A DNA stretch of 11,250 nucleotides from a virus. Its lineage: Monodnaviria > Loebvirae > Hofneiviricota > Faserviricetes > Tubulavirales > Inoviridae. Below the pieces are notes generated by a model. The model had not been told where the DNA came from, searched no databases, and was given only the letters and a program-made list of their open reading frames with translations. The stretch lies in the IMG/VR virus record IMGVR_UViG_2663763400_000001; one strand, written 5' to 3'. This document shows, piece by piece, positions 1-11,250 of this stretch (position 1 is the first letter of the stretch; each line of letters opens with the position of its first letter). Position numbers and translations under genes: made by a program.

Positions 1-258
1 ATGCGCTTTGAAGGGAATGCTTCTACAAGGAAATCTATTCAACAACGTCTTAAGCAGGCTTCAGATGCACGAGCTCAGGAAGTCGCCGGTAGCGAAGTGC
101 TTTACTCCGGTGATGCCAACCTGACTGATGAACAGATCGCTAAATTACCTTTTGCGTTATATCGCCAGGGCTACGAGTACTACTGGAAAACCCACGCACA
201 CCCAAACATATTCAGAAGCGTGAGGGATATAGTGCCATCAAAGCGCTGGCTGCTGTAA
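1..258 (+). CDS. Hypothetical protein (85 aa as given; begins at the window edge, so the true start may lie upstream); chromosomal flank outside the prophage
   Basis: Open frame from ATG at position 1 to TAA at 256-258. The product is not recognisable by eye. It lies outside the dif-bounded element. Confidence 0.35.
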   Translation: MRFEGNASTRKSIQQRLKQASDARAQEVAGSEVLYSGDANLTDEQIAKLPFALYRQGYEYYWKTHAHPNIFRSVRDIVPSKRWLL

Positions 259-410
259 ACAACGCAATTATCCAACTCATGGTCTATGGTGTGCCATCAC
301 TGAACAGAGGTTGAATTTTTCTACCGAAACGGGAGGGAAGTCAGAAATCACAACGTATTGATTTATCTGTGTGTGGATGTGAATGGTGAAGTAAAGGACC
401 TTCACAGGCA

Positions 411-438
411 ATTTAACATAATATACATTATGCGCACC
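411..438 (-). other. dif: dif chromosome-dimer resolution site (XerC/XerD target), serving as the left prophage junction
   Basis: Plus strand reads ATTTAACATAATATACATTATGCGCACC, the exact reverse complement of the 28-bp E. coli dif sequence as I recall it (GGTGCGCATAA-TGTATA-TTATGTTAAAT). XerD arm 411-421, central region 422-427, XerC arm 428-438. Confidence 0.85.
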
Positions 439-565
439 AATGGTAAGGATGGCAGAATCTGGCGGGAATCGTTGACACTGGCCGTCAACTGGCTACTATC
501 GACAGTGATTCAAAATCATCCGTTTCTCCAAACGAATCAGAATCAAATGTCTGTCAGCAGTAAGT

Positions 566-597
566 GAACGGCCTGACCTCACCAATCAGGCCTGTTC
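566..597. repeat. Imperfect inverted repeat (about 11-bp stem, 9-nt loop) overlapping the stop codon of the 579..827 ORF
   Basis: GAACGGCCTGA (566-576), loop cctcaccaa, TCAGGCCTGTTC (586-597). The arms are complementary apart from one bulged base. No clear U-tract follows on either strand. Confidence 0.35.
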
Positions 598-788
598 ATC
601 CAGTTAGTTGGTAAATCTGTACCTGATACACGAGAATCAAACACCACTTCTTCAGTGCCATCACCATGATGCCGGATAATCTGGTAACCGGATTGCGGGT
701 TCTGGCTCTCAGCTTCATAAGCAGCCCGGAATGCTGGATCTTTAAGAAGCATCACTTTCAGCTCCTGATGTGTCATGAATTTTTCCAT
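579..788 (-). CDS. Hypothetical small protein (69 aa from ATG at 786-788; the longest ORF extends to 827, 82 aa)
   Basis: Minus-strand ORF with product MEKFMTHQELKVMLLKDPAFRAAYEAESQ... The ATG at 788 has a weak GGGG Shine-Dalgarno 6 nt upstream, while the ATG at 827 has none. No family recognised. Confidence 0.4.
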   Translation of the reverse strand: MEKFMTHQELKVMLLKDPAFRAAYEAESQNPQSGYQIIRHHGDGTEEVVFDSRVSGTDLPTNWMNRPDW

Positions 789-972
789 GATAAGCCCCGA
801 TGAATGCTGCCGCGCCGAATCAGCCATAACGCTGAAAATGGAAACTGTACGGCTTGGCCAACCCCGGACAGCAACAAAACAAGTTTTGTCACTGACCGGC
901 GTTATCTTTCAAAACAGACAGTTAACGATTTTTTGTCTGGTGTTTATGCGTGAAATTTCGTGCGTACGAAAT

Positions 973-1221
973 TCACCACCAATAAACAAACGGACGATGA
1001 CTGACCGGAAAAGCAATGCCGTCAGCATCATGACCACGCATTACCTGATTGAGAAGCCTTCTGACTTCACGACGCTCAGGCCTGGTCATCATCATATTGC
1101 GATACCAGGACGGCGATTTATCAAACCATCTGGCACAACTGGCAAAATGTGAACCTACACGACGATAAGACTTAAGGCGGCCACCGGGAAGTCGGTCACG
1201 CGCCTTATTTTTTACAGACAT
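973..1221 (-). CDS. Hypothetical small, strongly basic (Arg-rich) protein, 82 aa
   Basis: Minus-strand ORF immediately downstream of the secretin gene, preceded by an AGAGGA Shine-Dalgarno 6 nt upstream of the ATG at 1219-1221. It is co-oriented with the phage operon. The overlapping + strand ORF 775..1152 has no ribosome-binding site. Confidence 0.4.
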   Translation of the reverse strand: MSVKNKARDRLPGGRLKSYRRVGSHFASCARWFDKSPSWYRNMMMTRPERREVRRLLNQVMRGHDADGIAFPVSHRPFVYWW

Positions 1222-1309
1222 AATAAATCCTCTAAGTAACTGAATACCTAGAAGATGTCGTACTGTTCATACCCCATAAAAGTTAACGCCATAATAAAAA
1301 TCCATACAA

Positions 1310-2554
1310 TCAGTTCAGGTTGTCCCGGAACAGTTCACCGCTCCTCGCGGCGCTGCGGGGCGTCGCCCTGCTCCGGTCAACCTTTCTGACCTGAAGCATC
1401 ACCATAATATCAGTCTTGTTGCTTTCACTGGTACGGGAACCGAAGAAGCTCCAGCCGGAACTGGCCTTACTGTCTTTCTGTTCAGCAAGGCCACCAAGTA
1501 AAATAATATCACCATCTGCAAGGCTGACTTCGGTTGTTACATCACGCTTGATAAGGGTTGGCGAGTTATTGACGCCGGTTTCAGTGGTCACAAAGTTGGA
1601 AAGCTGCTGCTGAATCTTGAGATCCATTGTCCGACTTTTGATTGATGGCGTCACGTTAAACAAAACACCGCTGGAACGATATTCAACGGATTGCGTTGTC
1701 GTATTGTTATTCACCGTAACACTGCCCAGTACTGGCACATCAGAGCCGACTGAAAAAGACGCTGAGGCATTATTTTTTACCCGCAGTCGTGGCGCACTGA
1801 CAACAGTAAAACGACTGTCGGTTTTCAGCAGATTGAAAATGGCATCAATGGAGCCGGTTCGAATATTGATAAAATTATCCAGTCCGGCAGCACCAACTGA
1901 AATATTGAATTTATCAGACAGAATTTTAGCCGCTAAAAGAATGCCGGAGCCGTCAGACTGCGAGGTCTGAACCTCAAAAACATAACCAGAAACAACCACT
2001 TCATCACTCATCGTATCCAGCGAAGTGACCAGTGTTTTCAGGATGGCGATATCCTCTTTCGTACCATAATAAACCAGAATATCACCGGTTCGATTGATGT
2101 AGTTGCTTGCCCCTGATGAACCTTTTAGCGAATCGTCAGAAATCACGGCTCCACTGTTATTGAAGGAGCCTGAAACGTAGCCGCCAAGAATATCAGACAG
2201 GTAGGCAACAGAACGGTACTGAGGCGTATAAGTCCATGTATAACGTGGCTTAACCGGCTCTTTCGGCGTATAGGGCGCGATAAAATCAACACCCTTTTTC
2301 GTCCATATTCGAATGTTCATATTGCCAAGATAACGGGTTACAAATTCCCGTTCATCAATATCAGGTGTTAACCTGAATGTAATCATTCGTTCATCATTAA
2401 CAAGCTGTGGATCTAGCATATACGGGACTTTAAGCACCTCACTGTAAATAAGAGAAATAGCCTCCGGTAGCTTGACTTTATTTAATTCAAGCTCTGACCC
2501 TGCGAAAGCACATGAAGAAAATAGTAGCGTTAATGCGAGTAAAATCTTTTTCAT
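1310..2554 (-). CDS. Filamentous-phage secretin (pIV-like outer-membrane export channel), 414 aa
   Basis: N-terminal signal peptide MKKILLALTLLFSSCAFAGS. The C-terminal region has a secretin-like Gly/Ser-rich segment (DGDIILLGGLAEQKDSKASSGWSFFGSR...). The start codon overlaps the stop of the upstream Zot-like gene (TAATG at 2552-2556). Position matches gene IV of Ff phages. Confidence 0.85.
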   Translation of the reverse strand: MKKILLALTLLFSSCAFAGSELELNKVKLPEAISLIYSEVLKVPYMLDPQLVNDERMITFRLTPDIDEREFVTRYLGNMNIRIWTKKGVDFIAPYTPKEPVKPRYTWTYTPQYRSVAYLSDILGGYVSGSFNNSGAVISDDSLKGSSGASNYINRTGDILVYYGTKEDIAILKTLVTSLDTMSDEVVVSGYVFEVQTSQSDGSGILLAAKILSDKFNISVGAAGLDNFINIRTGSIDAIFNLLKTDSRFTVVSAPRLRVKNNASASFSVGSDVPVLGSVTVNNNTTTQSVEYRSSGVLFNVTPSIKSRTMDLKIQQQLSNFVTTETGVNNSPTLIKRDVTTEVSLADGDIILLGGLAEQKDSKASSGWSFFGSRTSESNKTDIMVMLQVRKVDRSRATPRSAARSGELFRDNLN

Positions 2555-3579
2555 TATTTTTTCCCCGTATAAAGCGTCACACGCTCACCATCAATAATTC
2601 CGCTCATCAACATCCCTTTGTAATTAAAACTGGATGCAGGAACGGCACGCAAAACACCGGCACCATTAACAAGAATCACAAACGCCCTGCCTTCACTGGT
2701 CATTCTCCCTGATATACGCCACTCGGTTGAAAGTGGCGGTTCAGCTGGTTCTGAGGGAGTATCTGGTGCTGGAGTAGCAGCGGAAGAACGAAACATGGCC
2801 GCATCACGTACATCTGTTGTAGTCAAATCTGGCGAGGGATCGCTTCGGCCAAACGTGCTGAAAAATGAGTAAATCAGCCAGCCTGACCCGATAAACATCA
2901 ATGGAAAAAGCACAAGAAAGAACCTGACTTTGCCAGAATTCCAGATGCTCTGGCGTTTATCTGTCTGCTTTTCATTACCGTTATTTCCTTCATAACTTTT
3001 GTAAAGTTCAAAAATATCAGGGTTATATTTATTGCGATAACTGGTGACGAGGTTGCTTTTATAGATTTTGTGGCCTGAATATACGTCAATGCAGTAATGA
3101 TTATTCAGGCCCAACGCTTTCAGCTTGCGCATCCGGTAAGTTGTTTCTATTTTGTCTTTCAGAAAGCGAGCAATATTAGAAAGTGACTGATTTACAATAA
3201 CCAAATCACAGCTAATACCCGTTTCAGGGTGCGTAAAATGACGATGTTCAGCAATAAATGATTTCTTCTCAGCCGTCATATCCTTATCGCTACCGAAGAT
3301 TCGCCATGCTTCATCAATAACAATTAAATCACCAAACTGGCAAAAGCTCCCTTCCCCACCTTTAAAAGGAAAGAAATCTGCTTTAAGCACATCATCATTA
3401 TCCACAACAATAATTTCTCCCGTTGCATCAGGATAACGTTCGGTGATTTTATCTTTTTGTAAACCATAAATGTTCGTCACAACTCTCCGGCCGCTGGTAA
3501 ATGCCGGAATAATGACATTGCAAACGGCTTCATAACTTTTTCCTGAGCCGGGTATGCCAATATATGCAGAAATAGCCAT
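2554..3579 (-). CDS. Zot/pI-like phage assembly ATPase (zonula occludens toxin family), 341 aa
   Basis: N-terminal Walker A motif (MAISAYIGIPGSGKS), a Walker-B-like hydrophobic stretch ending in DE (LIVIDEAW) and a central transmembrane segment (FFLVLFPLMFIGSGWLIYSFF). This is the architecture of Ff gene I and Zot proteins. It sits directly upstream of the secretin gene. Confidence 0.9.
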   Translation of the reverse strand: MAISAYIGIPGSGKSYEAVCNVIIPAFTSGRRVVTNIYGLQKDKITERYPDATGEIIVVDNDDVLKADFFPFKGGEGSFCQFGDLIVIDEAWRIFGSDKDMTAEKKSFIAEHRHFTHPETGISCDLVIVNQSLSNIARFLKDKIETTYRMRKLKALGLNNHYCIDVYSGHKIYKSNLVTSYRNKYNPDIFELYKSYEGNNGNEKQTDKRQSIWNSGKVRFFLVLFPLMFIGSGWLIYSFFSTFGRSDPSPDLTTTDVRDAAMFRSSAATPAPDTPSEPAEPPLSTEWRISGRMTSEGRAFVILVNGAGVLRAVPASSFNYKGMLMSGIIDGERVTLYTGKK

Positions 3580-3582
3580 AAC

Positions 3583-3870
3583 TCACCCTATAACAGGAAT
3601 ACGTCGAATAATAAAACGAGTAGCCATTGCGGAGATAATCATACTAATCCCCTGTGGTAATTTACTCAGGTTAATGAAGTACCAGAATCCGTCTGATAAA
3701 TTGGCAAACAGCGATGAGAGATTGCTTGAATCTGGCAGTAACTCAACAAGGATTTCAACGAAGCCCTGGACTACAAAATACAGCGCAAAGAATACGACGA
3801 ATTTAATAATCAATGACCGGAATACAAAACCTAACAAAGTATTTAATGCACTAATCAGAATCCCAAACAT
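3583..3870 (-). CDS. pVI-like minor coat / membrane protein, 95 aa
   Basis: Very hydrophobic small protein encoded between the pIII-like gene and the Zot-like gene, the position of gene VI in Ff phages. Strong AAGGAG Shine-Dalgarno 7 nt upstream of the ATG at 3868-3870. Confidence 0.55.
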   Translation of the reverse strand: MFGILISALNTLLGFVFRSLIIKFVVFFALYFVVQGFVEILVELLPDSSNLSSLFANLSDGFWYFINLSKLPQGISMIISAMATRFIIRRIPVIG

Positions 3871-3882
3871 AGTTGCACTCCT

Positions 3883-5595
3883 TTAGGCACTCAGAATAAT
3901 ACGGAGCGCAACAAATCCCCATATAATCAGAAATATGGTTTCTACGGCGCTTCTGTTCTGCTCAATTAACGGACAATGGGAGTCAATTCTGTACTGGTGA
4001 TTAAACACGCTGAATTCAACAACGGGGCAGGATGCTGAACGAGAGCCGATGTTAAATTCGTTTGTAAAAGGCAACAAGTTAATAATTGGCGTTAAAATAT
4101 CTCTTGCCGTTGGCGTTTCTTCAAGCTCAGGCTCTTTTACACCGGGATCTTCTCCCAAATCTATATTGCCATTATTTCCAGTGTCAGATCCTGAGTTGTT
4201 ATTAATGGTAATATCAATATTGACGTCAGCCCCTGCACTGTCAGATACAGGTGAAAGCATATCTAATAACGTTGGAGATAGCCTAAGTTCCGACATCGCA
4301 GAAGTTACTTCAGCCGGTGAAACCTCTTTAAACGGTAAGCCGTTATAATCGGCATTAACGGCAGCTTCAGACCACAGCTCGTTAATCATGTCGGCAAGAA
4401 GTGCTGGCGATACACTAACACTATCAAGATACTCCAGATAATCAATCATGGACTCAATATTTCCAGCCTCCAGTACTTCCGTCATGGCTTTATATTTGGT
4501 ATTGGTCCAGATAGTAAGCTCACTCTTTTCATCAATATCTTTTGCGGTGTAATCCTCTTTTTCAGGAACGGCACAAATCGTCGAATATCCACCATTTGAC
4601 TGATTAGTCGTTTTACAAGGCGTGTTGTGATACTGATATTGCTTTCCTGCTGTTAAATAAGCAACGCTGTAATACATGGGAAGCCCTGCTACATTTTCAT
4701 ACATGGGAATACCTGCGGGAAATGAAGATGCGGCCGGGTTGCTATACAAGTGTGTAATCTCAGGTATTTCATAAAATGAGGAAGGATAAGTAAACTTATA
4801 ATTCTGTTCAGTAAAGGATACATCTCCATTACTGTTGACAACTTTATTCGTCACAGTGCGTTCAAAATTCGTTAGTGTTTCAGTATAAGTACGCGAGTTA
4901 TAGTCATTAAGATAATTTCTGGCAATTTCAGTTGGATTATCACCATAGTAATAAATTAGCTCTTTCGAATCCTGATAATAATAAAGTGCATTATCTGGCG
5001 TGGAATATCCTGTTTCAACACCTACAACTGGAGAACCCGCATCCACATTATTACGACTAACATGAAGGATTACCGGACTTAATTCCTGTGGTTCAAAATT
5101 AACGGTTATCGTCTTACTTTCACCACTTTGACCACTGTACGTTACTTCATATAAATTATCGGAAATCTTTTTACCGTTAGTCATTACCATTACCGAGCCG
5201 TCAGATGAACTCAAAGAAGACGGAACAAAAGATGATACAGCAGCAGCAATACCCGCCCACGTTGCAACACCGCTCATTTTGTATGATGAGGCAGCAGGCA
5301 AGTATTCGGCAGCATTAGCCGCAGCGCGGCCAACAAAAACACGGGTTGCTGTAAGCTGTGATGCCGTATAAATCGCATCATTGGCAGCAAAGCGACGAAC
5401 AAGCACCCGGCCAACGACTTTAGGAATAACAGCCCGCGCAGCCACTGCTGCAATTGCTGGTACAAATGAATATGAATATCGGGGAAAGGAAACCCAGAGA
5501 AAGGAAAAAATAAAGGAATAAACCGTCAGCCTCTTAGCCCAAGAATAACGACATAAGCTGAGACGATCCCCCATAAAAGGGAACCCAATTTCCAT
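3883..5595 (-). CDS. pIII-like minor coat / host-adsorption protein (start codon uncertain; longest ORF 570 aa)
   Basis: Large ORF after the major coat gene with Gly/Ser/Asn-rich linker segments (for example NNNSGSDTGNNGNIDLGEDPGVKEPELEETP) and a C-terminal hydrophobic anchor (IFLIIWGFVALRIILSA), as in Ff pIII. The ATG at 5595 has GGAG 8 nt upstream. An alternative start at 5277 precedes a signal-peptide-like segment (MSGVATWAGIAAAVSSFV). Confidence 0.6.
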   Translation of the reverse strand: MEIGFPFMGDRLSLCRYSWAKRLTVYSFIFSFLWVSFPRYSYSFVPAIAAVAARAVIPKVVGRVLVRRFAANDAIYTASQLTATRVFVGRAAANAAEYLPAASSYKMSGVATWAGIAAAVSSFVPSSLSSSDGSVMVMTNGKKISDNLYEVTYSGQSGESKTITVNFEPQELSPVILHVSRNNVDAGSPVVGVETGYSTPDNALYYYQDSKELIYYYGDNPTEIARNYLNDYNSRTYTETLTNFERTVTNKVVNSNGDVSFTEQNYKFTYPSSFYEIPEITHLYSNPAASSFPAGIPMYENVAGLPMYYSVAYLTAGKQYQYHNTPCKTTNQSNGGYSTICAVPEKEDYTAKDIDEKSELTIWTNTKYKAMTEVLEAGNIESMIDYLEYLDSVSVSPALLADMINELWSEAAVNADYNGLPFKEVSPAEVTSAMSELRLSPTLLDMLSPVSDSAGADVNIDITINNNSGSDTGNNGNIDLGEDPGVKEPELEETPTARDILTPIINLLPFTNEFNIGSRSASCPVVEFSVFNHQYRIDSHCPLIEQNRSAVETIFLIIWGFVALRIILSA

Positions 5596-5618
5596 AATTC
5601 AATCTCCATAATAACCTC

Positions 5619-5646
5619 AAGTAAAACGGGCGATATTGCATCGCCC
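5619..5646 (-). terminator. Candidate intrinsic terminator or attenuator between the major coat gene and the pIII-like gene
   Basis: On the minus strand, GGGCGAT-GCAAT-ATCGCCC (7-bp GC-rich stem, 5628-5646) is followed by GUUUUACUU. Its position matches the known terminator downstream of gene VIII in Ff phages. Confidence 0.4.
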
Positions 5647-5659
5647 ATGAATAATGAAT

Positions 5660-5893
5660 TTATGCGGATTTAACGGTACGCAATACCCAGCGAACGCCAG
5701 CGACACCGGCATAAAGTGTTACCAGTGAAGCAGCAACGGCCATAATCGCAACCAGAACTGTACTGAAATCAATGCTGTTCGTCAGCGGCGATAAATCAAC
5801 ACCACTTGATGCCGCTCCTTCTGCAGCGAAAGTCGCGCCAGAAACAGCCATTAATGCAGGTACAGCCAGAAAACTAACGATTTTTTTAAACAT
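5660..5893 (-). CDS. Major coat protein (pVIII-like) precursor, 77 aa
   Basis: Signal peptide MFKKIVSFLAVPALMAVSGATFA, then a mature protein starting AEG... with an acidic N-terminus, a hydrophobic transmembrane core and a basic C-terminus (RWVLRTVKSA). This is the hallmark layout of inovirus major coat proteins; the M13 mature pVIII also starts AEG. GGAG ribosome-binding site 8 nt upstream. Confidence 0.8.
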   Translation of the reverse strand: MFKKIVSFLAVPALMAVSGATFAAEGAASSGVDLSPLTNSIDFSTVLVAIMAVAASLVTLYAGVAGVRWVLRTVKSA

Positions 5894-5927
5894 AACTCTA
5901 TCTCCATTACATTTTAAAGGTTCGCAT

Positions 5928-6179
5928 TCAAGCAGTACGAACCATCTTTATTACCTGTCCCACACCTACAGAAAAAAGCCAGAGCAGCAGGACAGAGCCA
6001 AAACCTAATGTCCAGTAATTTCCCATTGCAGAATAATCAATTTGATGAAATGGTTCAGAACGTACCATTATTGCCTGACATTCTTTTGCATTGTTCGCAT
6101 TACATAAATAACCTTCAATACGGTAACCATTTTCAGGAATATGATTATCAAACTGAATATCGAAACCTGATGCATCCAT
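5928..6179 (-). CDS. Small membrane protein, 83 aa, in the position of Ff minor coat proteins pVII/pIX
   Basis: ORF between the putative ssDNA-binding gene and the major coat gene. It has a C-terminal hydrophobic helix (YWTLGFGSVLLLWLFSVGVGQVI). The start is tightly spaced after the upstream stop (TGATTATG). Confidence 0.5.
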   Translation of the reverse strand: MDASGFDIQFDNHIPENGYRIEGYLCNANNAKECQAIMVRSEPFHQIDYSAMGNYWTLGFGSVLLLWLFSVGVGQVIKMVRTA

Positions 6180-6181
6180 AA

Positions 6182-6499
6182 TCAGCCTTTTATTTCAGTA
6201 ATGCCGCCATCTGATGAAATGTTATAAGTTACTCCTTCCCTCCCCTCCATTGACCAGACGCGAACATATACAGGTATCTGGACTAACTTACCGATAAAAT
6301 TATTTGCCTGATTCATTACACCGGCATTAACAAGAGCCTGAGATACACGAATAATAATCTGGTCTTGCTTAGTGCCGCCAAAACCATCAGGAATCTCTAA
6401 GCCAACACCAATTTCATTATAGTATCCCTGACCATTGACCTTATTACGCTGGCGAGCACCAAGCATTTTACCTTTTACAAAAAGACCATAATTAGACAT
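6182..6499 (-). CDS. Putative ssDNA-binding protein (gene V equivalent, by position and size), 105 aa
   Basis: Small ORF immediately downstream of the replication initiator gene, with a strong AAGGAG Shine-Dalgarno that overlaps the initiator stop codon. The assignment is positional; I could not confirm sequence similarity to Ff gV by eye. Confidence 0.45.
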   Translation of the reverse strand: MSNYGLFVKGKMLGARQRNKVNGQGYYNEIGVGLEIPDGFGGTKQDQIIIRVSQALVNAGVMNQANNFIGKLVQIPVYVRVWSMEGREGVTYNISSDGGITEIKG

Positions 6500-6510
6500 A
6501 TCACTCTCCT

Positions 6511-7563
6511 TTAATGCCAGTTACTGGCATGTGAAATACGGTTATAATCGAAAATTAAACCTTTCTCATAAACCCATGATGGAATTTTGGCTGGTTTGGC
6601 TTCAAGAGTACGAACCAACGGAACAACGTTATTAGAATCCGGTGACTCACAATAAAAGTTAATATCTATTCCGAAAGAAAGTAATTCTTTACGGTGTCGG
6701 TAGAATGTAGGTTTCGGTAACATCTCTTTCATGTTCGCGCCCTGCTTCCACAATAAATATGTAGACTGTATTTTTCTTGGGAGATTAATTATTTTTTCAT
6801 CAGTTAATATAGTATTTTGATTCATTTCTATTCTCCCTACATAGTCAGAGAATAATTTATTGGGCGTCTCAATATTCCAGCTATTACCAAGCGTAAGATT
6901 CAAATCAATTAATTCAGTTGTTCTTAATGTTAATTCAATGCGTAATTTATCTTTTGACCAGTCCAGTAAACCAGCTTTAACGAATTCGTCTGCCATCTGG
7001 TGCCCTTTTTTGCCAGATGTATGCTCATCATATTTTGAATAAAATTTCAGGCTCCAACGACGGGAGTTTTTCCCTAAGTAAACAGTGCCACCTTTACCAC
7101 AGGCGCGACCGTGGCGAGTTTTAGCTTTAAATTCTGCGGCATATAACCATGCGCGGACATTTTCTAATGTTGACAATGAATACATGTAATTGATATCGAT
7201 GCGCGAGATCTTAAATTGCCCTTCCATGACCTGCCGATAGGATGGTAGATCATGAGGAATATGCAGTAATGCCAATATTCTGGCGTAAGCTGTTAACACC
7301 AACCCTTGCAAATCGTCGGAACCGATAACAGAGTGACCTTGCAAAAACTTTGATGGATTACCGTCAATGTAGAGATGTGTTGCCCGACCTTCACCATCAG
7401 ATCCAACAGACCTTACTTTCATTGTGGACTCATGCGAACCGCGAACGGTCAACCGTTTTACTGTTTCCCACTCCACTGCACCGTCAGCATCGACGCTGAC
7501 GACACTACCAGCCGGTAACGGTCGGTGTGTGCAAGGCAGGATTCCGGTAAACCAGTCGATCAT
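6511..7563 (-). CDS. Rolling-circle replication initiation protein (pII / RstA-like), 350 aa
   Basis: First gene of the minus-strand phage operon, about 350 aa with N-terminus MIDWFTGILP... Size, position and divergent arrangement with an HTH repressor match the replication initiators of integrating filamentous phages. Confidence 0.75.
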   Translation of the reverse strand: MIDWFTGILPCTHRPLPAGSVVSVDADGAVEWETVKRLTVRGSHESTMKVRSVGSDGEGRATHLYIDGNPSKFLQGHSVIGSDDLQGLVLTAYARILALLHIPHDLPSYRQVMEGQFKISRIDINYMYSLSTLENVRAWLYAAEFKAKTRHGRACGKGGTVYLGKNSRRWSLKFYSKYDEHTSGKKGHQMADEFVKAGLLDWSKDKLRIELTLRTTELIDLNLTLGNSWNIETPNKLFSDYVGRIEMNQNTILTDEKIINLPRKIQSTYLLWKQGANMKEMLPKPTFYRHRKELLSFGIDINFYCESPDSNNVVPLVRTLEAKPAKIPSWVYEKGLIFDYNRISHASNWH

Positions 7564-7734
7564 AAGTAGTCACACCCATCAAAATATGTGTCAATAGTCA
7601 TTTGTGAGCAGATTGAATGGTCACAATGTAATATGCTCAGTTCTGACAGTCAATACATTTGCAATGTTTAAATTGTCAGAAATGAGCATCAAATCTAACT
7701 ATTGAAAAACCACTGTTAAGATGGAGCCAAGTAG
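7564..7734. promoter_or_regulatory. Divergent intergenic control region between the replication gene and the repressor gene (candidate promoters and operators)
   Basis: Non-coding 171-bp AT-rich spacer. The minus strand has a candidate sigma70 promoter toward the replication gene (-35 TTGACT at 7653-7648, 17-bp spacer, -10 TACATT at 7630-7625). The + strand has a TG-TAATAT element at 7627-7634. Repeated GTCAATA (7590-7596, 7649-7655) and TGTCA/TGACA motifs are present. Confidence 0.5.
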
Positions 7735-8181
7735 ATGGGCAACAATGAGCATGAAGTTATGGCGGACAAACAGAGAGCAGAACGTATCAAAAAGGTAATT
7801 CTGGAACACTCGACTTATGAAGAACTGGCCGAGAAGACTGGCATTAGCGTGAGTACGCTGGTCAGGATAGCGTCCGGCAAAACTGAACCTAAATTCAGTG
7901 ACATCATTCAGATAGCTAAAATTACGGGTGCAGACTTAAACACCTTAGCTTATGGCTATGCTCTTGATGTTAAAGAAGAAGCTACCGAGCGGAAGCTAAT
8001 CACTTCTGCGGATGGATATACTGATGAAGAAACCACTAACGCACATAATTTCATCGTGTGGAACATCAGGACACTGGAAAAACAAGATATTCTGGCACTC
8101 GCAAGGCAGGTTTCTGCCTTAAGTTCATACACTTACAGTACTAAAATGTTTATGAAAAAAGCGGTGTCTGGAGAAGAGTAA
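7735..8181 (+). CDS. XRE-family helix-turn-helix transcriptional regulator (phage repressor, RstR-like), 148 aa
   Basis: Contains a Cro/C1-type HTH (YEELAEKTGISVSTLVRIASGKT...IAKITGADLNTLAYG). Transcribed divergently from the replication initiator. GGAG ribosome-binding site 8 nt upstream of the ATG at 7735. Confidence 0.8.
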   Translation: MGNNEHEVMADKQRAERIKKVILEHSTYEELAEKTGISVSTLVRIASGKTEPKFSDIIQIAKITGADLNTLAYGYALDVKEEATERKLITSADGYTDEETTNAHNFIVWNIRTLEKQDILALARQVSALSSYTYSTKMFMKKAVSGEE

Positions 8182-8210
8182 AAGGATTAACAGTCTCAGG
8201 AATGAGACAA

Positions 8211-8246
8211 ACGTGCAGTATTACCAACACTGCACGTTCTTTATTG
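8211..8246 (+). terminator. Candidate intrinsic terminator downstream of the repressor gene
   Basis: ACGTGCAGT (8211-8219), 9-nt loop, ACTGCACGT (8229-8237), followed by TCTTTATTG. Confidence 0.4.
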
Positions 8247-8280
8247 TGCGAATTTTGAACAGTGAAAAAGGATCAAAAGG

Positions 8281-8703
8281 ATGAGTAGAAATAACGAAAC
8301 AAGCGGCGTTGAACTGGTTGTCGTGGGCGTATTTGCTTTCTGTCTGGCAGTTGTTGCCTGGCTAATGAAAACTTTCGATGTTGAATGGCAAACAGCGCTG
8401 GAAACTGCGCCTGGCCTGATAGTGTGGCTGCTTGTTGTCGGGGCGGGGATCTTTTTCGGGATCAAAATGGAAACAGGCCTTGTTCGCTGGGGTGCTCCAC
8501 TGGCGATCGCCCTTCTGATTCCGGTATTCAAACCAATTCTTAAGGAAGCTGCCGGAGTTCGTGAAACGGGTGGGCTGGTTTTCGATGATATGGTTTCGTG
8601 GTACGGAACTGGCTGGGGAATGTCGTTGATGTTTTTCGGAATTCTTATCATCGGATACGGGATGCTTTATTGGTGGCACAGAAGAAATTCATATTACTGG
8701 TAA
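8281..8703 (+). CDS. Hypothetical polytopic inner-membrane protein, 140 aa (cargo gene 1)
   Basis: About four hydrophobic helices (VELVVVGVFAFCLAVVAWLM, GLIVWLLVVGAGIFFGI, APLAIALLIPVF, MSLMFFGILIIGYGMLYWW). AAGGA ribosome-binding site 8 nt upstream. The antisense ORFs 8241..8651 and 8362..8679 are Pro/Ser/Thr/Arg-rich, typical of the reverse strand of a hydrophobic gene. Confidence 0.6.
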   Translation: MSRNNETSGVELVVVGVFAFCLAVVAWLMKTFDVEWQTALETAPGLIVWLLVVGAGIFFGIKMETGLVRWGAPLAIALLIPVFKPILKEAAGVRETGGLVFDDMVSWYGTGWGMSLMFFGILIIGYGMLYWWHRRNSYYW

Positions 8704-8731
8704 TCAATAAAACGTAGAAGAGAGGAAATAT

Positions 8732-9007
8732 ATGAAACTGAATCCTGAGAAATACAATAGAAATATCACCCTGCTATGTCCTGTGTGCGGAAATACAGAG
8801 ATGGAACACGAGGAAGAGTCTGAAGTCGTCAGATGTGTAGGCTGCGGGAAAGAATTCACTAATGATGAGTTAATCCAAGAAAACGGGGTGAGTATTGACG
8901 CCCATGTGGATGAGATAAAAGAAGAGTTAACAAAAGATATTCAAAAACAGTTTAACGACATGCTCAAAAAGGCATTTAAAGGAAGTAAAAATATAAGGAT
9001 TAAATAA
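8732..9007 (+). CDS. Hypothetical zinc-ribbon protein, 91 aa (cargo gene 2)
   Basis: CPVCG and CVGCG motifs 17 residues apart (CxxC-x17-CxxC), followed by an acidic/Lys-rich tail. AGAGGA Shine-Dalgarno upstream of the ATG at 8732. AT-rich codon usage. Confidence 0.6.
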   Translation: MKLNPEKYNRNITLLCPVCGNTEMEHEEESEVVRCVGCGKEFTNDELIQENGVSIDAHVDEIKEELTKDIQKQFNDMLKKAFKGSKNIRIK

Positions 9008-9486
9008 TGACAACAAGTGATGCCATCGCTTTAGCTGCGCTTGTAGTATCGATTTACACTATCATATCATCAGAAGTGAAGTCGAGAAAAAGTGATAGAG
9101 AACAAAAGGTTATAAAGGATGAGCAAGACAGATTACGTAAGTTGCTTCTGGAAAAAGAAACAAAGTCAGCAATTAATGAGATGAAGGCTGAGCTTGGTGC
9201 CCGCCTCGTAAAAATAGCCAAAAACAACTATAGACTCAAGATATTTAATAGAGGGAAAGTTGAGGCTAAAAATATAGAGATTCATTTCCCTGATAACGAT
9301 GGCAATGAATATCTTTCCATGCATGATGTAGAAGATAAATTTCCATATGAAGTATTACACCCGCAACATGGGATTGAAATTTTAGCGGGACTAAGCTTTG
9401 GAAGCAAAACTAAATACCGAATAAAACTCATATGGGATGACAATTATAAAAAAAGGAATGAAGAGGAGTTTTTCATTTCTATATAA
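9007..9486 (+). CDS. Hypothetical membrane-anchored protein with a charged coiled-coil-like segment, 159 aa (cargo gene 3)
   Basis: The start overlaps the upstream stop as TAATG (9005-9009). N-terminal hydrophobic anchor (AIALAALVVSIYTIIS), then a highly charged K/E/R-rich helical segment, then a C-terminal region rich in aromatic and beta-type residues. Visibly AT-rich. Confidence 0.6.
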   Translation: MTTSDAIALAALVVSIYTIISSEVKSRKSDREQKVIKDEQDRLRKLLLEKETKSAINEMKAELGARLVKIAKNNYRLKIFNRGKVEAKNIEIHFPDNDGNEYLSMHDVEDKFPYEVLHPQHGIEILAGLSFGSKTKYRIKLIWDDNYKKRNEEEFFISI

Positions 9487-9516
9487 ATTGGTTCGCACAA
9501 TGACGTTATGCTAAAG

Positions 9517-9553
9517 AGGCCGCTGCGGGATACGATTTTCGCAGCGGCCTTTT
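9517..9553 (+). terminator. Candidate intrinsic terminator of the + strand cargo operon, directly abutting the right junction site
   Basis: AGGCCGCTGCG (9517-9527), 12-nt loop, CGCAGCGGCCT (9540-9550), followed by TTT. It is flanked upstream by AAAG, so it could act in both directions. Confidence 0.5.
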
Positions 9554-9583
9554 CAACATAACGAGTCGTACATTATGCGCACC
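9552..9583 (-). other. Hybrid dif-like site forming the right prophage junction: dif XerC arm plus a phage-derived expanded central region and XerD-like arm
   Basis: In dif orientation it reads GGTGCGCATAA (perfect XerC arm, 9583-9573), then TGTACGACTCG (11 bp instead of the 6-bp TGTATA), then TTATGTTGAAA (9 of 11 identical to the dif XerD arm TTATGTTAAAT). It shares 15 contiguous nt with the true dif at 424-438. Confidence 0.65.
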
Positions 9584-9661
9584 AACATAAACCAAGGGAG
9601 AATCCAGTCGTTGGCGGTTCATGATTGTTCTGCTCATTAACAACGACCAAAACCCCATATC

Positions 9662-10984
9662 TTACTTAATACCGTATTCTCGGCTTAACCGACCGTGCAA
9701 CCTCAACACATTGGTTTCAACTGCCGTCACCACGTTCTCCGGAAAATCTGTCGGTAATGAAGTCTTCACGTTATCCAGTGCTGCCGGAATCATTCTGGCA
9801 AAGTCACTCAGGATTTCATGCATCTGCACTTCCGGGAATTTCAGCACCTTTGCTGTCGCCAGAAAATGTCGCGGATAAATTTTATCGATTGCCGTTTTTT
9901 TGCCTTTGGATGCGTTAAGCCCCATTGCCAGTTTGAGATCGCTGATGTGTATTCCCGTACCGCCAAGGACCGGAAATGCCGAAATGATGTCATAAAATGG
10001 TGTGAGCCGATAACTGCCGCCAGCCTGAATAAATACGGAGAAGTTTTTTGCATGGCCATCTGTTGCGCCAATCAACCACTGGAAGACCTGAAACTTCATA
10101 AAATCATAGCGATCTTTCAGCGCCTCGCTGGACCCCATCAAAAAAGCCATAATTTGCGCGATACCGGGGCCTCCATCTGATTCATATTTCACCGATGAAG
10201 GTAAACCGAATGTCTGGCACATATCCTCCTGTGGCAAGCGAAGTAAAACCGTTCGCTCAGTATTCCAACGCCTGTCAAAACGTTTGACCGCTAACGCGCG
10301 CACCCTTCCCGCTTTAATGATTTCTGCGTCCGGAACATTCAACCCGAGTTCTTTCGCCAGCAGCAAACAGTAATACTCATTATCAACGCTTTGGCTAAGA
10401 TCGAGCGTCGCATTGGGCTGTCTGATTTCGCCAATCGGCAATTTGATAATGTGCGTCGTTGGCGTTATTCCCTTCGGAATGCACCAGTCATTGCCTATTC
10501 TGAGCAGCGCAGTCTTCTCCTGTGCGCCAGCAACCGAGATGCGAAAGTCATTTTCTTCTCTAATCATGCCTAACGGGATATCTGCTTTATAAGCCGTTAA
10601 TACTTCTTCAAGTCTGGCTTCAGTAAGCTTTTCCCATGCCATTATCGGACACATTACGGTTTCATCTTCGGGGATTAACGTCACGGCACCAACGCTGTCT
10701 CGCCCTATTTCTGACAATAAATCAAACGGTTGTCTGGATTTAGCATGATAACGTTTAACGATCCGGTCACGTACAATCGGGCTATCGGGTAACAGGTTAT
10801 CGAAGAAGTTAAATACGGCATCAGAGGTGATATTCCTCCTCTGCAATGGCAGCGAAAGTGACAACGGTCTGGCATAACGGCTGGCTAACCACTCAGGTGC
10901 ATACTTAAAGGTGTGCGCGCCGTTGGCTAACTTCGTTAACTCGCCTACCCGCTGGTTGTTCATCCAAGTGACTAGTTTAGGCAT
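9662..10984 (-). CDS. hipA: HipA serine/threonine kinase toxin of the HipBA type II toxin-antitoxin system, 440 aa
   Basis: From the ATG at 10982-10984 the product MPKLVTWMNNQRVGELTKLANGAHTFKYAPEWLASRYARPLSLSLPLQR... matches E. coli HipA essentially along its length, from memory. The start overlaps the hipB stop by 1 nt. The longer ORF reaching 11041 is an upstream in-frame extension into hipB. Confidence 0.95.
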   Translation of the reverse strand: MPKLVTWMNNQRVGELTKLANGAHTFKYAPEWLASRYARPLSLSLPLQRRNITSDAVFNFFDNLLPDSPIVRDRIVKRYHAKSRQPFDLLSEIGRDSVGAVTLIPEDETVMCPIMAWEKLTEARLEEVLTAYKADIPLGMIREENDFRISVAGAQEKTALLRIGNDWCIPKGITPTTHIIKLPIGEIRQPNATLDLSQSVDNEYYCLLLAKELGLNVPDAEIIKAGRVRALAVKRFDRRWNTERTVLLRLPQEDMCQTFGLPSSVKYESDGGPGIAQIMAFLMGSSEALKDRYDFMKFQVFQWLIGATDGHAKNFSVFIQAGGSYRLTPFYDIISAFPVLGGTGIHISDLKLAMGLNASKGKKTAIDKIYPRHFLATAKVLKFPEVQMHEILSDFARMIPAALDNVKTSLPTDFPENVVTAVETNVLRLHGRLSREYGIK

Positions 10985-11250
10985 CACCACTCCAGATCTT
11001 GCTGTTCTGTTGCTTCTGGCGAGGCATTTTTTGCGTCGCATAGCGTCATTGAGAGTTCAAGCGACTGTAAAATCTTAAAAAATGTCGTGAGCGAGGTATT
11101 GTTAGGATTGTTTTCGAAATTGGAAATTGTCGCCTGCTTAATGCCGATTTTTTTCGCCAACTCGCTCTGCGTCCAGCCGTTTTGCTGGCGAACCAGTTTC
11201 ATTGCATTCGCCAATTGCATTGGGCTATAGATCTTCTGAAAGCTCATCAT
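10984..11250 (-). CDS. hipB: HipB antitoxin / HTH transcriptional repressor, 88 aa
   Basis: Product MMSFQKIYSPMQLANAMKLVRQQNGWTQSELAKKIGIKQATISNFENN... matches E. coli HipB (XRE-family HTH), from memory. The start codon lies at the window edge (11248-11250); the promoter and operators are beyond the window. Confidence 0.95.
   Translation of the reverse strand: MMSFQKIYSPMQLANAMKLVRQQNGWTQSELAKKIGIKQATISNFENNPNNTSLTTFFKILQSLELSMTLCDAKNASPEATEQQDLEW

Follow-up and report, generated by a model that had tools for sequence, protein, structure and literature searches.

The right junction of the filamentous prophage contained in the window (the whole stretch of 11,250 nucleotides that was analysed) is very probably the phage-chromosome hybrid junction of a CTXPhi-type IMEX, an element exploiting the Xer recombinases of its host. 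The feature has been described before and brings no new biology, being a clean but unremarkable instance of a known mechanism. It nevertheless offers a well-resolved E. coli case of CTX-type single-stranded phage integration, for which an exact isogenic empty site is available. We establish here the anatomy of the junction, the exact insertion, the predicted fold of the attachment site together with its conservation, the interval in which the crossover took place, and the sequence identity with YpfPhi. The attachment site of this element, with its asymmetric 11/5 spacers, also provides a compact 94-nt enterobacterial attP(+) model that can be used to annotate other dif-borne elements.

Table 1. 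Position and strand in the window of the sites, genes and repeats discussed in the text.
Feature	Position	Strand	Remarks
Perfect 28-bp dif (GGTGCGCATAA TGTATA TTATGTTAAAT), regenerated	411..438	-	Exact E. coli dif consensus; 0 expected by chance
CUS-1/YpfPhi-like filamentous prophage, single copy, 9145 bp	428..9572	-	Boundaries set at the XerC cleavage positions
RstR-like HTH gene	7735-8181	+	Upstream of the cargo ORFs
Variable cargo ORFs, three (8281-8703, 8732-9007, 9007-9486)	8281..9486	+	Adjoin attP2; no assigned function
attP2, dif-like, inverted, GGTTCGCACAA TGACG TTATGCTAAAG	9490..9516	+	5-nt spacer
Apex hairpin of the predicted forked attP(+)	9517..9550	.	11-bp stem, 9517-9527 with 9540-9550; 12-nt loop, 9528-9539
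attP1 phage XerD arm TTATGTTGAAA	9551..9561	-	Predicted to pair with the XerD arm of attP2
CAACATAA, copy 1	9554..9561	+	Complement of the inner 8 nt of the phage XerD arm
Central region TGTACGACTCG	9562..9572	-	11 nt, phage-derived
Hybrid-junction XerC arm GGTGCGCATAA	9573..9583	-	Chromosomal origin; prophage-free homology begins at 9569
CAACATAA, copy 2	9583..9590	+	Native chromosome: last XerC-arm base and 7 flanking bases; present in L002 and L054
hipA, chromosomal	9662..10984	-	From annotation; Pfam HipA_C and Couple_hipA; stop codon 71 nt from the hybrid site

Junctions, empty site and position of the crossover

Read on the minus strand from 9583 to 9551, the hybrid site (attP1) consists of a perfect XerC arm (GGTGCGCATAA), a spacer of 11 nt (TGTACGACTCG) and a XerD arm (TTATGTTGAAA) that differs from TTATGTTAAAT by 2 mismatches (9/11 positions match), in full agreement with the perfect XerC arm, 11-bp central region and near-dif XerD arm described in the first-pass annotation. 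The first 4 nt of the spacer agree with those of the dif spacer TGTATA (TGTA followed by CGACTCG versus TGTA followed by TA), whereas its XerD side has no match, so that homology to the dif spacer is confined to the side of the XerC arm. The XerD arm by itself is not above chance level (11 matches versus 7.5 expected) and is meaningful because of its position and its conservation. The two ends of the prophage have an identical stretch in common, which had been recorded as 15 nt from the left-end dif; the identity is real and extends over 17 nt, TTGGTGCGCATAATGTA, at 424-440 and 9569-9585, for a chance expectation of 0.01. Among 5426 complete E. coli genomes, 165 contain the hybrid junction. 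At the other end of the prophage lies an intact dif, which is also found, in identical form, in two empty-site strains (L002 and L054). Along the phage (+) strand the order is hybrid site, hairpin, attP2, phage genome and intact dif.

The first-pass annotation had proposed that a prophage-free E. coli would define which bases are chromosomal, and had considered that an 11-bp-spacer site might occur natively beside hipA. The isogenic, prophage-free APEC O1:K1:H7 strain E18006 answers both points, since it carries a plain dif directly beside hipA. Positions 1-440 and 9569-11250 of the window are each 100% identical to E18006, and in further prophage-free genomes the match to the window starts only at 9569. 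The two flanks overlap by 17 bp in the empty site, and the inserted element therefore measures 9145 bp. The same length is the period of a tandem array in strain FDAARGOS_1303 (L001), where the same hybrid site occurs at the junction between copies. The insertion lies exactly at the host dif, one side of it keeps the regenerated intact dif, and no duplicated bases were added beyond the 17-bp common core. Under the CTX-type model, the XerC arm of the regenerated dif (428-438) would be phage-derived and its spacer and XerD arm (411-427) chromosomal.

The empty site also settles the status of the 8-bp repeat CAACATAA that had been reported to flank the core of the junction. The copy at 9583-9590 was placed correctly, the first one lies at 9554-9561 and not at 9553-9560, and the pair is not beyond chance in the window, as 32 of 200 shuffles held at least 2 copies. 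Two exact copies bracketing the site core might be taken for a target-site duplication, or for the mark of a transposition-like insertion or of one made by a separate recombinase, but such an origin has practically no chance of being correct and we reject it: one copy pre-exists in empty sites, and the phage XerD arm accounts for the other. Moreover, copy 2 is degenerate in VR50, where it reads CAATATAA, the repeat is missing at phage-phage junctions, nothing is duplicated besides the common core, and the element contains no transposase or integrase detectable in the RefSeq annotation, Pfam or PHROGs. The repeat, as judged from these sequences, appears to be incidental, with no apparent role. 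A recombinase encoded by the element itself, which the earlier reading had allowed for, was likewise found neither in the RefSeq annotation nor among the Pfam and PHROGs matches.

The window alone places the crossover no finer than within the 17-bp identity, as would also be expected from RecA-type homologous recombination across this identity, without any Xer catalysis. Comparison with relatives is more precise. In E. coli 8178 (L052), the hybrid site has the chromosomal arm GGTGCGCATAA and the regenerated dif has GGTTCGCATAA, and the spacers part after TGTAT; the exchange therefore took place inside a 12-nt interval that holds the XerC cleavage point. The G/T pattern is the same in a Photorhabdus locus (L012). 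More generally, the XerC arm of the hybrid site differs among relatives according to the host and the remainder of the site is constant, with host-type arms such as AGTGCGCATAA and AGTACGCATAA in other hosts joined to otherwise identical phage sequence. Phage-derived XerC arms thus remain in the working dif of some strains, providing natural evidence for the position of the crossover. The recurrence of the same junction type in hosts with XerC arms unlike the phage arm, the 12-nt interval defined by E. coli 8178, and the agreement of the architecture with the experimentally defined CTXPhi system make the RecA explanation extremely improbable, all the more as 17 bp is very short for RecA-dependent exchange. 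The only spacer bases that are invariant across the variants are TGT, and E. coli strain 998 carries, at the same dif, a prophage with the spacer TGTCAACGCG; therefore, three common bases suffice. The earlier observation that the XerC arm plus 4 nt of the central region are common with dif consequently holds for TGT, which is conserved, but the fourth base is not required.

Predicted fold of the attachment site and its conservation

A second dif-like site, attP2, which escaped the first-pass annotation, lies in inverted orientation on the far side of the hairpin, so that the minus strand reads attP1, hairpin, attP2. It occurs in 21 places among related loci and, as modelled on the virion strand, would supply the bottom strand of a folded site. 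The 11-bp-stem hairpin at 9517-9550, previously noticed as abutting the junction, is real, and belongs to an inverted repeat larger than its stem, with 24 nt per arm and 88% complementarity (9504-9527 with 9540-9563). As single-stranded DNA, the 98-nt stretch from 9585 to 9488 is predicted to form a single long forked hairpin of ~94 nt in which the XerC arms pair together and the XerD arms pair together, an asymmetric bubble results from the spacers of 11 nt and 5 nt, and the GC-rich stem forms the apex. Two mismatches are retained in the stem, G-A within the XerC arm and A-C within the XerD arm. The suggestion that the hairpin helps to fold the attachment site in single-stranded phage DNA therefore matches the CTX-type model, yet the hairpin is the apex of a larger fork and not a separate neighbour of the site.

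The related loci, 46 in total, were gathered by scans with pII and contain 13 distinct variants of the 93-94-nt attP. When placed on the proposed structure, these 13 variants yield standard pairs in 96.2% of cells, and 5 pairs are changed on both sides, in a set whose mean column identity is 95% and whose covariation comes from few independent events, most compensated pairs belonging to one Brenneria lineage. None of 500 shuffles equalled the observed pairing and compensation, and sliding the register by 1-3 columns reduced pairing to 27-51%. The Brenneria variant also shows compensatory changes in the apex stem. Locus L008 was omitted from the pair count, as MAFFT sets it one column out of register, and was assessed by its own fold: its arms, spacers and apex are unrelated in sequence, and it retains the 11/5 spacer architecture. 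In a Klebsiella genome (L007) and in E. coli strain 8178, the attP is of a second type whose spacers measure 9 nt and 6 nt. In L008 and in these two loci the sequence of the apex differs, but its position is always between the two inverted sites.

This constancy bears on the possibility that the hairpin is mainly a terminator (of the plus-strand cargo operon, of hipA or of both), or a packaging or minus-strand-origin signal, that adjoins the site by chance. The GC-rich 11-bp stem is indeed followed by TTTT and lies 31 nt past the stop codon of the last cargo ORF (9486), and in several elements the module directly follows the last cargo gene. However, the terminator scan makes no call, the loop is 12 nt long and only 4 T follow the stem. 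Pairing, moreover, extends unbroken beyond the stem through both XerD arms to both XerC arms, which a terminator does not need, and the apex keeps its place between inverted sites even where its sequence differs. We thus consider this explanation quite unlikely as the main function of the hairpin; termination or packaging could be a second role exerted alongside that in attP.

The predicted fold is stable on both strands, with an energy of -30.0 kcal/mol (z = -6.8) for the minus strand and -27.6 kcal/mol (z = -6.6) for the plus strand. The strand preference is thus a modest energy difference, since the complement folds well too. It is nonetheless consistent, the virion-sense strand being more stable than its complement in 15/15 variants, and three conserved G-T wobbles pair on the minus strand of the window only, where the complement would have A-C mismatches. 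This minus strand codes for the core genes and also carries the top strand of dif. In filamentous phages, the coding strand of the core genes is the packaged (+) strand. The virions of YpfPhi hold positive single-stranded DNA (PMC4266046). Strand stability, the G-T wobbles and the orientation of the prophage all fit, by analogy with CTXPhi, a (+) single strand as the putative recombination substrate.

The alternative to a folded single strand is an integration of the VGJPhi type, whereby the double-stranded replicative form would recombine through the single 33-bp site with attP2 and the hairpin uninvolved. Like VGJ-type sites on their XerC side, attP1 has the XerC arm and TGTA in common with dif, and VGJ-type integration likewise depends on XerC-only catalysis (PMC4246890). 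The VGJ attP is, however, a single 29-bp site with a near-normal spacer that leaves two compatible sites, whereas the spacer here is 11 bp. The conservation of the inverted partner site, with its compensatory changes and strand-biased wobbles, and the maintenance of the paired architecture by L008 despite unrelated sequence also speak against a single-site reaction, and we regard it as very unlikely.

Phage genes, cargo and identity of the element

On the minus strand, the prophage encodes pII, a single-strand DNA-binding protein, a pIII-like protein, a DUF2523 protein, a Zot-like pI and a pIV secretin. pII matches the Pfam families Phage_CRI and G2P_X_C, and both pIV and the Zot-like pI match PHROGs. 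With the entire prophage as query, megablast returned no match in the GenBank collection of phages; the comparison with YpfPhi was obtained from the genome scan with pII. The pII of the element and the one encoded by Y. pestis NCTC5923 are 100% identical, and positions 424-8171 of the window are 99.7% identical to the prophage of this strain (7749 nt, ~7.75 kb). The attP region (9486-9585) is 99% identical to its Y. pestis counterpart, with the same attP1 and attP2 sequences, and the cargo segment (8172-9485) is the only part that YpfPhi lacks. Judged from these matches, the element is a CUS-1/YpfPhi-like filamentous prophage, its likeness to YpfPhi resting on sequence and that to CUS-1 on description.

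The cargo segment is swapped for other genes in related prophages (L003, L052 and L053), and the module made of attP2 and the hairpin adjoins different cargo genes in phages, dif islands and plasmids. The site beside attP2 is thus a gene-exchange hot spot, with different cargo genes in different relatives. The relevance of this hot spot stems from the association of CUS-1 and YpfPhi with fitness in invasive E. coli K1 and in plague. In the copies of the module found on plasmids and in a SIR2 island, the sequence past the XerD arm is unlike a XerC arm or any phage spacer. We considered these copies as possible Xer-made hybrid junctions, a status to which the sequence beyond the XerD arm gives no support.

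Integration pathway and comparison with known systems

The mechanism described for CTX phages provides the most probable explanation of these observations. In the CTX model, XerC alone exchanges one strand pair, guided by homology beside its arm, and replication completes the reaction; excision of the resulting duplex prophage is prevented by the loss of the fold and by the unsuitability of both spacers (PMC4246890). Applied to the element studied here, this model implies that, in the circular (+) single-stranded genome, the inverted attP1 (11-nt spacer) and attP2 (5-nt spacer) would pair into a ~94-nt forked hairpin capped by the GC-rich 11-bp stem. The folded attP would offer a duplex of each arm type, XerC and XerD, on either side of an asymmetric bubble, and the host XerC and XerD would bind it before forming a synapse with the chromosomal dif. 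XerC would then cut and exchange the top strands at the boundary between XerC arm and spacer, the exchange being stabilised by the TGT(A) that the phage site has in common with the dif spacer. The second strand pair would not be exchanged by XerD because of the lack of homology on the XerD side, and replication would turn the intermediate into a duplex prophage. As the expected outcome, the 3' end of the prophage would carry an intact dif (411-438) and its 5' end a hybrid in which the chromosomal XerC arm is joined to the spacer and XerD arm of the phage, with the hairpin and attP2 coming directly after it. Once the DNA is duplex, the fold no longer exists and the two spacers measure 11 bp and 5 bp; therefore, the insertion should be stable. 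Catalysis by XerC, the single-stranded substrate, completion by replication and irreversibility are here inferred from work on CTXPhi. The original proposal that an exchange on the XerC side joined a phage site to dif and left a long-spacer hybrid unfit for Xer is in this way supported by the comparative evidence and by the published CTX-type model.

In YpfPhi, superinfecting phage reportedly becomes inserted at the imperfect site separating resident copies (PMC4266046), an insertion that the classical model does not predict. It is conceivable, but in our opinion unlikely, that the hybrid 11-bp-spacer site, together with the hairpin and attP2, could fold anew when the DNA is replicated or transcribed and then serve as a secondary target of Xer. 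If true, this would explain the insertion of superinfecting YpfPhi between resident copies and could allow the exchange of modules composed of cargo and attP among phages, dif islands and plasmids.

Our literature search on IMEX at the E. coli dif/hipA locus or on CUS-1 yielded two reviews (PMC4246890 and PMC4266046) and the Endo III paper, and nothing further. Among the known types of Xer-exploiting phages, those of VGJPhi and TLCPhi resemble the present element in the use of the host XerC/XerD and dif and in having no integrase of their own. The VGJ type differs by its one duplex site, its near-normal spacer and its reversibility, in contrast with the 11-bp spacer and the conserved inverted partner found here. 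TLC-type elements have a degenerate XerD arm and XerD-first exchange (PMC4246890), whereas here 9/11 positions of the XerD arm match and the agreement of the spacer with dif is limited to the XerC side, so that an assignment to the TLC type was rejected.

The likeness to CTXPhi is much more extensive. In CTX, attP1 has a 12-bp spacer and attP2 a 5-7-bp spacer, and the two sites, ~90 bp apart, pair in the (+) single strand (PMC4246890). The present attP(+) similarly comprises two inverted dif-like sites predicted to fold, with a spacer of 11 nt instead of 12 bp in the exchanged site and of 5 instead of 5-7 in its partner. Both systems also have homology to dif on the XerC side only, a regenerated dif, tandem arrays and no phage integrase. 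The differences concern the intervening sequence, a perfect hairpin of 34 nt here versus ~90 nt in CTXPhi, the size of the fold (~94 nt versus ~150 nt), the lack of any detectable sequence relationship past the Xer arms, and the host, here an enterobacterium that has a single dif. In CTXPhi, both irreversibility and catalysis by XerC alone have been demonstrated; they would apply to the present phage by analogy.

YpfPhi and CUS-1, the closest known phages, are both listed as CTX-type (PMC4246890), although in YpfPhi the dependence on XerC has been termed 'proposed' in a review (PMC4266046). For YpfPhi, XerC/XerD sites in an inverted pair, tandem arrays, a dif left intact at the 3' end and an imperfect one between copies have been described (PMC4266046), and the element in the window resembles this phage in its integration at dif, intact 3' dif, inverted site pair, imperfect junction dif and tandem arrays, with a genome of 9145 nt versus the 8.7 kb reported for YpfPhi. 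CUS-1 and YpfPhi are 99% identical over ~7 kb and carry different ORFs beside the attachment site (PMC4266046). The present element is similar to CUS-1 in its extraintestinal-type E. coli background and in having, beside the attachment site, a cargo that differs from that of YpfPhi; CUS-1 has been described with two ORFs in this segment (orf1 and orf1a), whereas the element studied here possesses three.

Host dif sequence in and around the integration site

In some lysogens, the XerC arm of the working dif is phage-derived and one base off the host arm, which is kept in the hybrid site (working dif GGTTCGCATAA vs hybrid site GGTGCGCATAA). Since the host arm is left behind in the hybrid site and the phage arm serves in the working dif, integration rewrites the host dimer-resolution site. 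The 8-bp direct repeat that the first-pass annotation reported around the hybrid site is explained by the native sequence here: the 7-mer TTATGTT stands on both sides of the native E. coli dif (top strand TTATGTT-GGTGCGCATAATGTATA-TTATGTT, L002:1488-1522 in a prophage-free locus; window 9584-9590), so that the chromosome just beyond the XerC arm mimics the start of an XerD arm, which accounts for the repeat.

Coordinates of dif sites, dif-borne elements, module copy and cargo segments
Feature	Source	Coordinates	Details
Non-phage element	E. coli 21AH126	L004:9330-12140	~2.7 kb, between perfect dif and hipA
Perfect dif	E. coli 21AH126	L004:9330-9357	
Working dif, phage-derived XerC arm	Strain 8178	L052:5447-5474	
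Working dif, phage-derived XerC arm	Photorhabdus	L012:6859-6886	
Further dif-like junction	L010 contig	L010:2811-2840	AGTGCGCATAA TGTGTTGA ACATGTTAAAT; 8-nt spacer
Plasmid copy of module	Plasmid pAGR6137b	L005:4002-4071	
Cargo segment	This prophage	window 8172-9485	Three unknown ORFs
Cargo segment	VR50	L003:7444-9004	DUF6953 set
Cargo segment	Strain 8178	L052:9420-10909	Other ORFs
Cargo segment	Strain 998	L053:9505-10940	STM4504-family gene
Cargo segment	Y. pestis		YPO2271/2272

Exchangeable cargo and the attP2 module

The segment from the RstR-like gene to attP2, the inverted dif-like site, is a swap point where the cargo varies in an otherwise near-identical backbone. The strain 998 prophage carries next to attP2 a gene of the STM4504/CBY_0614 family, 69% identical to one found on plasmids; the plasmid gene immediately precedes the module formed by attP2, the hairpin and the XerD arm (window 9489-9560), with an IS200 fragment adjoining. 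This module also occurs, ~93% identical, on many large E. coli plasmids, at 477 places. The plasmid sequence past the XerD arm resembles neither an XerC arm nor any of the phage spacers.

In the non-phage element of E. coli 21AH126, part of a transposase gene and a gene of the SIR2 family precede the same attP2 and hairpin module. At its junction, ~50 nt that are found on plasmids too take the place of the XerC arm. This ~2.7-kb element may represent a dif element, either decayed or satellite, that carries a defence-type gene.

Possible stacked and neighbouring insertions at dif

E. coli VR50 (L003:1-4608) has a rearranged array in which the block for replication and regulation is duplicated and a truncated pIII-like gene lies between the copies. 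Two contigs with this enterobacterial phage, L008 and L010, bear the labels of metagenome-assembled genomes of Aerococcus and Candidatus Nanosynbacter, most likely through a binning error. The further dif-like junction of L010 is placed between the CUS-1-like hybrid site, ~3.4 kb away, and hipA, which suggests that an older dif-borne element is stacked nearer hipA. On the XerD side, E. coli lineages diverge in sequence from precisely the outer end of the XerD arm of dif (window 1-410 vs L002:1380-1487 and, in 21AH126, L004:1540-1560). In 21AH126, a 7.8-kb island that carries oxidoreductase and LysR genes stands between a relic of the outer half of the XerD arm (ATTTAAC) and the true dif, hinting that the XerD side of dif also receives insertions.
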